Below the pieces are notes generated by a model. The model was given only the letters and a program-made list of their open reading frames with translations. It was not told the origin of the DNA and ran no database searches. The translations under genes were made by a program, and so were the position numbers. Shown in pieces: positions 44,250 through 48,933 of a stretch of DNA of 64,000 bases (its first letter is position 1; each line of letters begins with the position of its first letter). This DNA comes from an uncultured Chloroflexia bacterium (GTDB taxonomy: Bacteria; Chloroflexota; Limnocylindria; QHBO01): the NCBI GenBank assembly GCA_963773695.1, contig CAVZCE010000015.1, forward strand, positions 46,744 through 110,743, written 5' to 3'.

Positions 44250-44618
44250 TCCGTGGGACCTTTGCGCTGTTGCCAAGACCAATCGGGGCACGGCTTGGGC
44301 ACGCGCGATTCATCGATTCAGGATGTGCAACCGAGCTTGCGGAGCCCGCCCACAGTGTGGCCAATCTGCCCGACCGCAGCTCCGTGCCGCGTAGCCCGCG
44401 ACCAAAGTACGCCCGCCGGGGGATGTTCTCGGGCGAGCCGCTTTCCTAGGATCGTGCCTGTCGCTCATTTATTTGAGCGCAGTTGGCCGGGTGGTGCGAG
44501 ATGCCTGGTTTGGGGCCAGGCGGCGGCATATCATGCAGAGGGCACACACCTGGCGCGCGATCGACCATCGACCGATGAGCGCACGGACTCGGCCAGTCGG
44601 GCACGCCATGGCACCGCG

Positions 44619-47600
44619 TTGCTGGTGGCCAGCATCGTCGTCTTCAACGCCGTCCTGTTGTCGGCCACGGTTGGGGCGCCACGCGCCGCGGCCATCACCG
44701 ATGGCTTCTACGCGGCATCCGACGACGGCCCCTTGATGAACGTGCCGCTCTTCGACTCGCTGAGGAGCACCCTGTGGCCCTGCCAATCGGACATGGCCCG
44801 CCGCAACCTGAGCGAGGTCGACACCTCCACCCGCAACCTCGATGAGGACGCGGGTATCTCCATCGCCGCCGGCAGCCGCGGCTGCCAGCTGATCAACAAC
44901 TCGGTGCAGGGCACCAGCTGGTACGGCTGGATGTATCCCGACACCACCTACGGCGTGGCCGACTTCAACGGCAGCGGCTCGGGAACCGGCGATCCGCGTC
45001 ACGCGGACCTCTGCCATACGCCGAGCCCGACCTCGATGGGCGCCGGCAAGGTCCGGCTGCTGGGTGAGCTGGAGAAGCCGACCACCGGGCTGGCCTTCAA
45101 CGCCAGCATCACCCTCAGCGCCAAGGTGGGCCAATGCGTATCGGAGTCGACCCTGGCCTCGTACAGCATTGCCTCCATCTCGGCCCAGACCAGCGCCGCG
45201 ACGCAGGCCTTCGACGTCACCGTCGCCATCCCCGACGGGACCCGCGACCTGGCGCTCACCATCCGGGGCGGGGACCCGCGCGACACCGGCGCCGGCAACG
45301 GCGTCTACGTCCACTACCTGCGCATGTACGCCTCCCTGGGCGCCGACGCCCCGGACCCCTCCCTACCCATGCTCCCCGCACAGCTGCGCGGCACGGGATC
45401 AGGCACCTATGGCAACGACCCCTCGCGCCGCGAGGCGGAGCCGGTCAACACTGCGACCGGCAACTACGTCCACCAAGACACCGACCTCGCCCTGCCCGGC
45501 CTCGGCCTGCCCGTGGCCGTCACCCGCACCTACAACTCCCTCGACACCGACACTGGTCCCCTGGGGGTGGGCTGGAGCTTCGGGTACGCCATGCACCTCG
45601 ATGCGGGCAGCGACGGCTCGCTGACCTTCAGCGCCGAGGACGGGGCCCAGTACGTCTTTGCCCCCGACGGCTCGGGCGGCTTCCTGCGCCCGGCAGGGAC
45701 GTACACCGACCTGGTGCAGCTTGAGGACGGCAGCTACCAGCTCACCCGGCGTGACGGGGTGATCGACGCCTTCGACAGCGCCGGGCTACTCGCCAGCCAG
45801 ACCGACCGCAATGGCAACCAGCTGACCTTCGACTACACCAGCGGCCGGCTGACGACCATTACCGACACCGTGGGCCGCACCGTCAGCCTGGGCTACGACG
45901 GCTCGGGGCGGCTCAGCGAGCTCGACGCACCCTTGAGCCGCAGTGTGACCTACACCTACGACGGCTCTGGCCGCCTGGAGACGGTCACCGACCTGGCGGG
46001 TGAGACGACCACCTACGCCTACGACACCTCCAGCCGTCTGACCACCATCACCGACGCCAACGGCCACGTGGTGGTCACCAACGAGTACGGCACCGACGGC
46101 CGGGTCAGCGCCCAGACCGACGCCAACGACAACACCTCGACCTTCAGCTGGGACCCCGACACCGGCACCGCGGCCTACACCGACGCCGCGGGGCATGCGT
46201 GGGCCGACGTCTACCTCGGCAACGTGCTGCTCAGCCACAGCGACCCGCTGGGCAACACCACCACCTACACCTACGACGCCAACTTCAACCGAGCCAGCGT
46301 CACCGACCCCACCGGCCACACCACGACCTACACCTATGACGCCAACTCGAACCTGCTAAGCCGCACCGCGCCAGCCCCGCTCTCGTATGAAGAGTCGTGG
46401 ACCTACACCGCCCTCAACGACGTGGCCAGCTACACCGACGGGCGTGACCACACCACCACCTACACCTACGACACCGCCGGCAATCTGACCGTGGTCACCC
46501 AGCCCGGCGACATCGAGGCCGACTACGGGCGCGACCCTAACGGCACCGGGCTGCTGGTGAGCACCACCGATCCGCGCGGCAAGACCACCGCCTACACCTA
46601 CGACGCCGACGCCAACCTGGCCAGTGTCACCAGCCCCACCGGCGACGAGACGACCTATGCCTACGACGCTGCCGGACGGCGGATCAGCATGGTCGATCCG
46701 CGCGGCAACGCCAGTGGCGCCGATCCCGGCGACTACACCACCGCCTACACCTACGACGACGCCGACCGCCTGACCAGCGTCAGCGATCCCCTCGACCACA
46801 CCACGGGCTACGAGTACGACCCGGTCGGCAACCGCACCAGCGTCACCGACCCCAACGACCACACCACGGCCTACGCCTACGACCCCGCCAACCACCTGGC
46901 CGGCGTCACCGATGCCGCTGACGAGACCACCTGCTACGAGTACGACGAGGTCGGCAACCTCGTCTCACGCACCGACGCCAACGACCACACCACCACCTAC
47001 GCCTACGACCACGCCAACCGCCTGACGGGCGTCACCGATCCGCTCGACCGTTCCACCGCGATCACCTACGACGGTGCCGGCAACCCGGAGACCCGCACCG
47101 ACGCCACCGGGCAGACCACGACCTACACCTACGACGCCCTCAACCGGGTGACGGCCATCGACTATGAGGACACCGCCACCCCCGACGTGGCCTTCGCCTA
47201 CGACGCCAACGGCAACCAGACCGCGATGACCGACGGCGGCGGCACCCAGACGGCAACCTTCGATGACCTCGACCGACTGACCGGGGTGACTCGCGGCTCC
47301 GATGCGTTCGCCTACGGCTACGACGACGCGGGCAACCTCACTAGCCGCACCTACCCCGACGCCACCGAGGTCGCCTATACCTACGACGATTCGGGCCTGA
47401 TGAGTTCGGTGACCACCGACAGCGCCACGACCACCTACGCCTACGATGAGGCCGGCAACCTGACTTCCATCGGCCTGCCCAATGGGGTCGACGAGTCGCG
47501 CACCTACGACCCCGTCGGGAGGCTGTCCACCATTCACGCCGCGGGCAGCGCGGGGACCCTCACCGATCTGGCCTACACCTACGACCCGAGCGGCAACATC

Positions 47601-48890
47601 AGCGCCGTCGCCACCGCGGCCGCGAACCTGAGTGAGCGGGCCAGCCTGGCCAGCGACGGCAGCCAGGCGACGGGCGCCGGCAGTTCCGGTGCCAGCGACG
47701 CCTTCAGCCGCACCACCAGCAACGGCTGGGGCACCGCCCCGGTGGGCGGCGACTGGTCCATCGACTACGGCTCGAGCTCGGACTTCGCCACCGACGGCTC
47801 AGCGGCGACCATGACCCTGCCGGCCAGCACCACCGACGAGATGGTCCTCAGCGACGTGTCGGCCGCCGACACGGTCACCAGTGTTCAGCTGGCGACCGAC
47901 AAGCTGGCTGCCGGTGACTCCCAGGTCTTCTTCCTCTACGCCCGGCGCACCGATGACAACAACTGGTACCGGCTGGGCGTCGCCTTCCACACCGACCAGA
48001 CCGTCTCGATGGCCATCGCCCGCAAGGTGGCCGGCACCCAGACCACCCTGGTCAGCCAGGCGATCACCAGGGAGACGCACGCCGCCGGGCGGGTCTTCAA
48101 CATCGTCTTCTCGGTGGTCGGCTCCACCCTCTCCGCCAAGATCTGGCAGGACGGCACCAGCGAGCCGTCGAGCTGGGACGAGTCCGAGACGGACACCGCC
48201 ATCACCGCCGCGGGGGCCAATCCCCTGCGCGGCTATGTCGGCTCGGCCAGCAACGCCCCGGTGACCGCGGCTTGGGACAACCTGGTGATCAGCCTGCGCG
48301 GATCGGGCAGTTCCGGTGCCAGCGACGCCTTCAGCCGCACCACCAGCAACGGCTGGGGCACCGCCCCGGTGGGCGGCGACTGGTCCATCGACTACGGCTC
48401 GAGCTCGGACTTCGCCACCGACGGCTCAGCGGCGACCATGACCCTGCCGGCCAGCGCCACCGACGAGATGGTCCTCAGCGACGTGTCGGCCGCCGACACG
48501 GTCACCAGCGTTCAGCTGGCGACGACAAGCTGGCTGCCGGTGACTCCCAGGTCTTCTTCCTCTACGCCCGGCGCACCGATGACAACAACTGGTACCGGCT
48601 GGGCGTCGCCTTCCACACCGACCAGACCGTCTCGATGGCCATCGCCCGCAAGGTGGCCGGCACCCAGACCACCCTGGTCAGCCAGGCGATCACCAGGGAG
48701 ACGCACGCCGCCGGGCGGGTCTTCAACATCGTCTTCTCGGTGGTCGGCTCCACCCTCTCCGCCAAGATCTGGCAGGACGGCACCAGCGAGCCGTCGAGCT
48801 GGGACGAGTCCGAGACGGACACCGCCATCACCGCCGCGGGGGCCAATCCCCTGCGCGGCGATGTCGGCTCGGCCAGCAACGCCCCGGTGA
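44619..48890 (+). CDS. Rhs/YD-repeat family secreted protein, N-terminal roughly 1420 aa (frame broken downstream)
   Basis: Hydrophobic signal-like N-terminus (start codon uncertain; TTG at 44619 or GTG at 44625). A roughly 270 aa N-domain is followed by the RHS-repeat entry motif EPVNTATGNYVHQDTDLALPGLGLPVAVTRTYNS and about 40 YD repeats across roughly 45400-47600. Two copies of a 209 aa module follow. The frame ends in copy 2 through a 1 nt deletion near 48524. Confidence 0.7.
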   Translation: MLVASIVVFNAVLLSATVGAPRAAAITDGFYAASDDGPLMNVPLFDSLRSTLWPCQSDMARRNLSEVDTSTRNLDEDAGISIAAGSRGCQLINNSVQGTSWYGWMYPDTTYGVADFNGSGSGTGDPRHADLCHTPSPTSMGAGKVRLLGELEKPTTGLAFNASITLSAKVGQCVSESTLASYSIASISAQTSAATQAFDVTVAIPDGTRDLALTIRGGDPRDTGAGNGVYVHYLRMYASLGADAPDPSLPMLPAQLRGTGSGTYGNDPSRREAEPVNTATGNYVHQDTDLALPGLGLPVAVTRTYNSLDTDTGPLGVGWSFGYAMHLDAGSDGSLTFSAEDGAQYVFAPDGSGGFLRPAGTYTDLVQLEDGSYQLTRRDGVIDAFDSAGLLASQTDRNGNQLTFDYTSGRLTTITDTVGRTVSLGYDGSGRLSELDAPLSRSVTYTYDGSGRLETVTDLAGETTTYAYDTSSRLTTITDANGHVVVTNEYGTDGRVSAQTDANDNTSTFSWDPDTGTAAYTDAAGHAWADVYLGNVLLSHSDPLGNTTTYTYDANFNRASVTDPTGHTTTYTYDANSNLLSRTAPAPLSYEESWTYTALNDVASYTDGRDHTTTYTYDTAGNLTVVTQPGDIEADYGRDPNGTGLLVSTTDPRGKTTAYTYDADANLASVTSPTGDETTYAYDAAGRRISMVDPRGNASGADPGDYTTAYTYDDADRLTSVSDPLDHTTGYEYDPVGNRTSVTDPNDHTTAYAYDPANHLAGVTDAADETTCYEYDEVGNLVSRTDANDHTTTYAYDHANRLTGVTDPLDRSTAITYDGAGNPETRTDATGQTTTYTYDALNRVTAIDYEDTATPDVAFAYDANGNQTAMTDGGGTQTATFDDLDRLTGVTRGSDAFAYGYDDAGNLTSRTYPDATEVAYTYDDSGLMSSVTTDSATTTYAYDEAGNLTSIGLPNGVDESRTYDPVGRLSTIHAAGSAGTLTDLAYTYDPSGNISAVATAAANLSERASLASDGSQATGAGSSGASDAFSRTTSNGWGTAPVGGDWSIDYGSSSDFATDGSAATMTLPASTTDEMVLSDVSAADTVTSVQLATDKLAAGDSQVFFLYARRTDDNNWYRLGVAFHTDQTVSMAIARKVAGTQTTLVSQAITRETHAAGRVFNIVFSVVGSTLSAKIWQDGTSEPSSWDESETDTAITAAGANPLRGYVGSASNAPVTAAWDNLVISLRGSGSSGASDAFSRTTSNGWGTAPVGGDWSIDYGSSSDFATDGSAATMTLPASATDEMVLSDVSAADTVTSVQLATTSWLPVTPRSSSSTPGAPMTTTGTGWASPSTPTRPSRWPSPARWPAPRPPWSARRSPGRRTPPGGSSTSSSRWSAPPSPPRSGRTAPASRRAGTSPRRTPPSPPRGPIPCAAMSARPATPR

Positions 48891-48933
48891 CCGCGGCTTG
48901 GGACAACCTGGTGATCAGCCTGCCCGGATCGGG
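47681..48933 (+). repeat. Near-identical tandem duplication of a 627 bp (209 aa) module inside the rhs gene (copy 1 47681-48307, copy 2 48308-48933; a partial third start at 48934)
   Basis: The protein segments SGSSGASDAFSRTTSNGWGTAPVGGDWSIDYGSS…WDNLVISL repeat with only a few substitutions. Copy 2 lacks one C (gcgaccgacaagctgg versus gcgacgacaagctgg). Confidence 0.85.

Follow-up and report, generated by a model that had tools for sequence, protein, structure and literature searches.

A tandemly duplicated lectin-like module in the disrupted reading frame of a putative Rhs/YD-repeat toxin gene from an uncultured Chloroflexota bacterium

We analyzed a stretch of 64,000 nucleotides (the window) from an uncultured Chloroflexia bacterium (GTDB lineage Chloroflexota; Limnocylindria; QHBO01), covering positions 46,744 to 110,743 of the forward strand of contig CAVZCE010000015.1 in assembly GCA_963773695.1. 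The window contains a large rhs gene, presumably encoding a secreted Rhs/YD-repeat toxin, in which a 209-residue module of predicted concanavalin-A-like fold occurs twice in tandem. The duplication appears to be genuine and older than the split between the window strain and a closely related strain with an intact gene, the module itself appears to be an insertion found in this lineage only, and the window allele is probably an old, multiply broken one. We estimate the probability of this explanation as a whole at about 0.66.

Results

Two module copies lie head to tail

Global alignment delimits a first module copy of 627 nt (209 codons), in frame with a long open reading frame (ORF), and a second copy of 626 nt that follows it head to tail (Table 1). 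The copies are identical at 622 of 627 alignment columns (99.2%). Their five differences are the substitutions 47829 A>G (Thr>Ala), 47882 T>C (synonymous), 48234 T>G (Tyr>Asp) and 48298 G>C (Arg>Pro), and the lack in copy 2 of one C beside 48523, where copy 1 has CC at 47896-47897. A repeat finder paired 47679-47896 with 48306-48523 at a spacing of 627 and 47897-48196 with 48523-48822 at a spacing of 626, which indicates a tandem repeat with a one-base insertion or deletion (indel). The locus thus shows the features of a recent tandem duplication, with near-identical, in-frame, head-to-tail copies of a 627-nt unit and a GSSGASD linker at all three boundaries.

An earlier note on this DNA, made from the sequence alone, had described a 627 bp tandem duplication with copies over 98% identical and a 1-nt deletion in copy 2 that ends the long ORF, and both observations were confirmed. 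The third copy, which it placed directly after copy 2, turned out to be only about 24 nt of linker (48932-48955, encoding GSGRSGASDA), a motif also present ahead of copies 1 and 2. Past 48523, the long ORF in frame 2 (44253-48890) turns to nonsense, and the module translation resumes in frame 1 inside the ORF 48272-49213; the third-codon-position GC signal changes frame at 48523 as well. The overlapping ORF therefore continues the protein after 48523, as the note had proposed, but departs from the coding frame itself at about 49082. Of the differences between the copies, only the missing C is disruptive, whereas in the gene as a whole it is joined by no fewer than 17 other indels and by a TGA in frame.

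An intact allele carries the same two copies

Through a cluster mate of an orphan rhs ORF, we found a contig of 12,675 bp (ena:ERZ25039483:contig_8721, L006) that aligns end to end with window positions 44513-57183 at 98.2% identity. Its rhs ORF comprises 2285 codons without interruption and is cut only by the contig start. The encoded protein consists, in this order, of a signal/anchor and N-terminal domain, DUF6531, YD repeats, two modules, seven 58-residue PD40 blades, further YD repeats, the Rhs core and a glycine-rich tip. The two module copies of L006 are identical at 627 of 627 positions, and the window copies deviate only slightly from this unit (Table 1). Since a second contig has the same copy number, the duplication is not private to the window assembly and predates the strain split.

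The locus is represented by three variants, namely the window, L006 and L001 (ena:ERZ25039483:contig_63325), the latter two originating from one metagenome assembly, ERZ25039483. We compared L001 with window positions 44513-53626. Its first 21 nt are the same as window 44513-44533, and the next 435 nt, which match neither the window nor L006, apparently comprise the end of another glycine-rich tip and most of a 160-aa membrane ORF. L001 joins the window at 49406-49570, skips 49571-50131 and bears an IS3-family insertion at window position 51023-51035. That both L001 and L006 start at window position 44513 suggests the boundary of a strain-variable segment. Scans for the module in one genome per species and in JGI metagenomes returned distant loci only (28–63% identity over parts).

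Probable insertion of the module into a propeller loop

The closest Rhs relatives, P0155-P0158 (1529-1974 aa, with 55–72% identity over the aligned N-terminal block), are composed of DUF6531, YD repeats, PD40 repeats and YD repeats, and lack the module. None of the 119 best Rhs relatives carries it. Residues 287-1066 and 1472-2144 of the L006 protein map to adjoining, slightly overlapping stretches of P0155-P0157, and the extra material in L006 is exactly the 418 residues of the two modules. The GSSGASD linker flanking the modules is the counterpart of a "GASD" loop in propeller blade 1 of the relatives. Based on the module-less relatives and the matching loop, the module appears to have entered the loop of blade 1, where it is bracketed by a short direct repeat, and would thus be a lineage-specific insertion at the boundary between the N-terminal YD block and the first propeller blade.

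An uncurated family with a predicted concanavalin-A-like fold

The predicted fold of the module is a concanavalin-A-like β-sandwich of about 200 residues with two curved sheets (a jelly roll), modeled with a predicted local distance difference test (pLDDT) score of 96.6. The nearest structures are lectins, carbohydrate-binding modules and receptor-binding domains of actinophages, with sequence identities of 5–13% for the top matches and up to about 15% further down. In a viral structure library, the best matches were minor tail and tail-fibre proteins of actinophages. Neither the window module nor any of 31 diverse family members matched a Pfam or NCBIfam model, including Laminin_G_3; by sequence, the module therefore falls into none of the curated families of the concanavalin-A-like superfamily (Laminin_G_3, Lectin_leg-like, GH16, DUF1080 and similar). 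A search of PDB sequences with the profile of the module family also gave no match. The earlier note was thus right in finding no recognizable family. Its suggestion of a lectin or jelly-roll-like binding module holds for the predicted fold, whereas we infer carbohydrate binding from the nearest fold neighbors and from the co-occurrence of the module with PKD and glycoside-hydrolase-type domains.

The window module significantly matches phrog_24476, a phage family named "phosphodiesterase", with E=4.9e-18 at profile positions of about 829-1014, as do 28 of the 31 family members. This match is limited to the C-terminal accessory part and does not reach the enzyme part. The family has the signatures DxFxR-x4-GWGTA-x2-G-x2-W near its start and W-x2-G-x2-EP-x2-W near its end. 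A GH16-like catalytic role of the module is unlikely, because no ExDxxE motif occurs among the conserved positions.

An exhaustive search with the first family profile (A1) collected 13,955 proteins, a count inflated by the PKD tail of this profile, of which positions 241-294 match PKD domains of collagenases in the PDB. A trimmed profile (A2), applied to the top 152 proteins only, located the module in 150 of them, with two copies in 98, three in 34 and up to six in a few, often head to tail. The relatives often contain PKD domains and, in a few cases, enzyme domains (a glycosyl-hydrolase core or a phosphoesterase). Adjacent copies in other family proteins have a median identity of 51%, and a dozen pairs exceed 96%. 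In P0117, P0091, P0127, P0129 and other unrelated proteins, neighboring copies about 90–110 residues apart are 96–100% identical; many second copies in proteins of this type stop at the protein end, to which contig breaks within repeats may contribute. In-place duplication or homogenization of the cassette thus seems to recur in many organisms as a habit of the family.

A broader view would be that the "GWGTA" module represents a very large uncurated family of concanavalin-A-like receptor-binding cassettes, which are exchanged between tail proteins of phages and surface or toxin proteins of bacteria and duplicate easily in place. The insertion described here would then be a contact-dependent toxin retargeted by a phage-type receptor-binding domain. 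We offer this view as a speculation that is more likely wrong than right.

Lesions of the window allele

The window differs from L006 by 205 substitutions and 25 indels, and the indels are distributed very unevenly (Table 1). Between 48523 and 50150, the reading frame of the window switches repeatedly. Measured against the intact orthologous allele, the tract 48523-50137 holds the frame-breaking lesions of a pseudogene, 18 indels and one TGA, so that the gene would be either a multiply broken pseudogene or a badly polished region. We concluded that the missing C is probably the first of many lesions in this 1.6-kb tract and not a fresh, lone hit.

The segment 48937-49405 has 25 substitutions (5%), spread over the three codon positions as 8/8/9 and consisting of 11 transitions and 14 transversions, as opposed to only 2 in the 3856 nt upstream. 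They are hence about 100 times denser in the tract than upstream, with a neutral-looking pattern. The following blade (49406-49570) has diverged from L006 by about 30%, yet it is orthologous, and it is 90% identical to L001, with 15 gap columns and 2 mismatches. We considered it as a remnant of a foreign gene, as it matches the 3' end of an L001 ORF, and rejected this possibility because 49380-49600 shares 80% identity with its counterpart blade in L006, compared with 64% for other blades. The adjoining stretch 49571-49988 is identical to L006. Most of the window indels lie outside homopolymers. In the clusters 44546-44567, 48522-49570, 49996-50137 and 54540-54999, the net length change is 0 or -3, and the original frame is restored each time. 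Programmed frameshifting or phase variation at 48523 was also rejected, since there is no repeat tract at this position and the downstream frame is broken many more times.

The pattern of the tract points to an old decayed or mosaic, recombined segment, because the flanks on both sides are far closer to the intact allele and the upstream part is near-identical to it. As uniform decay does not explain a divergence confined to 48456-50150, one must assume either recombination with an allele of the intact type or that a dead segment was imported.

Weighing the alternatives

Several points weigh against the explanation that we prefer. The recombination step is an additional assumption, demanded by the failure of uniform neutral decay. 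The net length change of each indel cluster is divisible by three, an outcome not expected from simple decay, and such frame-restoring clusters may be recombination patches or consensus artefacts. The perfect identity of the L006 copies could partly reflect polishing. Finally, that the modules bind glycans and sit at the surface, and how they were duplicated, are matters that we infer.

The most serious alternative is an intact gene in the organism, with the missing C and the remaining indels introduced as consensus errors when a metagenome was assembled from long reads across a repeat-rich, strain-variable region. The near-identical contig with an intact allele fits such errors, as do the multiples of three and the exact coincidence of the lesions with the tandem repeats of 627 and 174 nt. 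At 49406-49570, nearly all differences between L001 and the window are indels, as is typical of long-read noise. The contig_N names also resemble those of a long-read assembler. On the other hand, the TGA arose from two substitutions and not from an indel, the tract has 5% substitutions in addition to indels that mostly avoid homopolymers, about 43 kb of housekeeping genes, with a full-length AlaS, are free of frameshifts, and the window allele resides on a contig of 254,647 bp. We therefore regard consensus errors as a rather unlikely, though by no means negligible, cause.

The earlier note had left the choice between fresh pseudogenization and an assembly error. Of these, error survives as the alternative just discussed. 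Very recent loss of a working gene through the single 1-nt deletion in copy 2 is highly improbable: the deletion is indeed the first frame-breaking lesion, and the 3.9 kb upstream are almost the same as in the intact allele, but the comparison with L006 contradicts a single event, for the 1.6 kb that follow contain seventeen further indels, a stop codon and the dense, neutral-looking substitutions. Spurious expansion of a single module is the least credible possibility, for even though assemblers can miscount near-exact tandem repeats, two separate contigs have exactly two copies, the window copies differ at five positions including an indel, and multi-copy arrays are usual in the module family. 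An old, multiply broken allele with a genuine duplication remains our preferred explanation.

Architecture of the rhs gene

The gene hosting the modules is most probably an rhs locus of the polymorphic-toxin type, as judged from the combination of DUF6531, RHS, PD40 and YD repeats, an Rhs core and a glycine-rich tip. Upstream of the modules, RHS repeats match PF05593 (E=1.3e-101, 17 stretches) and TIGR01643 (E=1.5e-83). The PD40 repeats (PF07676) are recognized with E=5.8e-06 in the window and E=9e-18 in L006, where the seven 58-residue blades are visible. C-terminal to the YD repeats, the Rhs-associated core TIGR03696 (E=4e-20 within 50142-51365) ends in ...NPVRYTDPSGRF, containing the DPxG motif, and is followed by the glycine-rich C-terminal tip.

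No single continuous ORF from the N-terminal region to the tip was found in the window, as the frame breaks at 48523, at about 49082, at the TGA at 49302 and at further sites. The public record contains the truncated product P0094, known only from one contig of 254,647 bp. It consists of a hydrophobic N-terminal signal/anchor, the N-terminal domain, DUF6531, YD repeats, copy 1 and the first third of copy 2, and it ends with 122 out-of-frame codons. Exact-product look-ups gave no match, either for P0094 itself or for products assumed to start at 44253, at 44454 (as V or M) or at 48272.

The presumed toxin tip within 50900-51599 is glycine-rich, with runs such as GGGGSVGASVSAGVSG. The 73-aa ORF downstream of it is a candidate immunity gene, and the tip together with this hydrophobic ORF resembles a membrane-acting toxin with a membrane immunity protein. 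The orphan rhs fragment further downstream seems to shift frame at about 52295, before DPxGL, and ...NPLRFTDPSGL is read in a different frame. L001 has the identical stretch, and L006 can be aligned to it without gaps; an assembly error is unlikely there, since the break is common to the three contigs.

Genomic setting

The window encodes an AlaS of 883 aa, like its homologues, whose closest relatives among the taxon-named matches are from metagenome-assembled genomes of Candidatus Limnocylindria (Chloroflexota), at about 74–77% identity. MnmA, RuvX, ScpA and ScpB have complete domain matches. Downstream, the rhs locus is followed by a Mutator-family transposase gene that a group II intron interrupts, by a phage-type integrase and by tRNA-Pro, and these surroundings fit a strain-variable island.

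The Mutator/IS256-family transposase (53684-57146, minus strand) has its C-terminal half at 53687-54515 and its N-terminal half at 56553-57134, with the intron in between; the window and L006 are frameshifted differently in this gene. The reverse transcriptase (54997-55686) and maturase (54585-55001) of the window intron are in different frames, whereas L006 has one intact reverse transcriptase-maturase ORF of 483 aa. The integrase (58032-58883, minus strand) adjoins tRNA-Pro (59041-59117) within 57978-59117, which suggests that the rhs locus and the mobile elements belong to an integrated island. An F420H2-dependent quinone reductase (59145-59796, minus strand) is the only ordinary non-mobile gene seen frameshifted in the window. 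The gene changes frame at about 59320, so that one frame covers Pfam positions 8-83 and the other 86-130.

Table 1. Features of the rhs locus and distribution of indels relative to the intact allele L006, in window coordinates
Feature	Position	Strand	Remarks
Indels relative to L006: 2	44546-44567		Upstream of the GTG start at 44625
Indels relative to L006: 0	44568-48522		
Truncated Rhs ORF (P0094, 1421 aa)	44625..48890	+	GTG start at 44625
DUF6531 (PF20148)	45438..45659	+	E=3.7e-22; residues 296-369 of the translation from 44553
N-terminal YD/RHS repeat block	45761..47612	+	17 Pfam repeat matches; 63-nt periodicity
Module copy 1	47679..48305	+	Predicted concanavalin-A-like β-sandwich; one substitution relative to the L006 unit
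Module copy 2	48306..48931	+	Three substitutions and one missing C relative to the L006 unit
Site of 1-nt deletion (CC>C)	48522..48523	+	Frame 2 to frame 1; most 5' lesion
Indels relative to L006: 18	48523-50137		
Linker motif GSGRSGASDA	48932..48955	+	Counterpart of the "GASD" loop of propeller blade 1 in module-less relatives
Seven PD40-type β-propeller blades	48932..50131	+	174-nt period; degraded, 17 indels relative to L006
In-frame TGA	49302..49304	+	Two substitutions: CACCAAC in L006, CATGAAC in the window
C-terminal YD repeats, TIGR03696 core, glycine-rich tip (presumed toxin)	50132..51368	+	
73-aa ORF with two hydrophobic segments	51378..51599	+	Directly 3' of the toxin tip
Orphan rhs C-terminal fragment	51661..52908	+	5' part 90% identical to 50245-50544; frame broken just before DPxGL
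Indels relative to L006: 4	54190-54999		Mobile elements
Indels relative to L006: 1	About 57175		

Discussion

We propose that a 209-residue domain of the lectin or carbohydrate-binding-module type was inserted, in this lineage only, into the gene of a secreted Rhs/YD-repeat toxin, presumably into the loop of blade 1 of a PD40 propeller, which has seven blades and itself interrupts the YD shell. One copy might have become two through unequal crossing-over or replication slippage between the short flanking direct repeats, before the split from the 98%-identical strain with its intact frame of 2285 codons. By analogy with the nearest structures of the fold and with domains that decorate the shells of other Rhs/YD proteins, both modules would most likely extend outward from the shell of the toxin and attach to a glycan on the surface of the target cell, and the second copy would raise avidity. 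The window allele would have died afterwards, with the missing C as the first lesion in 1.6 kb of sequence that also carries the other indels of the total of 18, the nonsense codon and neutral-looking substitutions.

The locus may thus illustrate how an Rhs toxin gains a surface-binding domain, in this case a lectin-like cassette that landed in a loop of the propeller, is bracketed there by a short direct repeat and was later doubled. It also draws attention to a large β-sandwich family that also occurs in phage tail proteins and is without a Pfam or NCBIfam model. For annotation, the broken state of this rhs gene should not be read as a single recent frameshift. The finding is otherwise largely ordinary and leaves the current understanding in place, because decorated YD shells and decaying rhs loci are already well documented.

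Among known systems, the gene shares with the WapA-like Sec-dependent Rhs/YD toxins of Gram-positive and monoderm bacteria DUF6531, many YD repeats, an Rhs core with DPxG and a variable C-terminal tip, as well as what comes after the tip, a small ORF with a candidate immunity role and, further downstream, an orphan C-terminal fragment. It differs from them in the seven-bladed PD40 propeller interrupting the YD shell, which P0155-P0158 also have, in the two lectin-like modules, absent from all of the 119 closest relatives, and in that the window copy is probably a pseudogene. By fold, the modules are related within the concanavalin-A-like superfamily to CBM66, legume-type lectins and ERGIC-53, and among phage proteins to the receptor-binding domains of TM4 gp23, Douge gp23 and J-1 Dit CBM2; unlike these proteins, the module family has a signature of its own, and its identity to the top structures is just 5–13%.

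YD shells with inserted receptor domains are known from SGS1 (PDB 8FJP), TcB-TcC and teneurins, which have no detectable sequence relationship to the present gene. Segments inserted in the YD-repeat sequence of the mosquito protein SGS1 build up its propeller 2, a carbohydrate-binding module and a lectin domain, and two neighboring sugar-binding domains of this protein have been proposed to be cooperative (PMC9935623). The propeller of TcB serves the binding of TcA, and the shell of teneurins bears receptor domains (PMC9935623). In contrast to these proteins, the sandwich domains described here are exact duplicates and reside in the loop of the first blade instead of between YD repeats, with a presumed position on the shell. 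The present gene is a further example, from a bacterial toxin, of a decorated YD shell, here with an uncurated domain family and an exact duplication.
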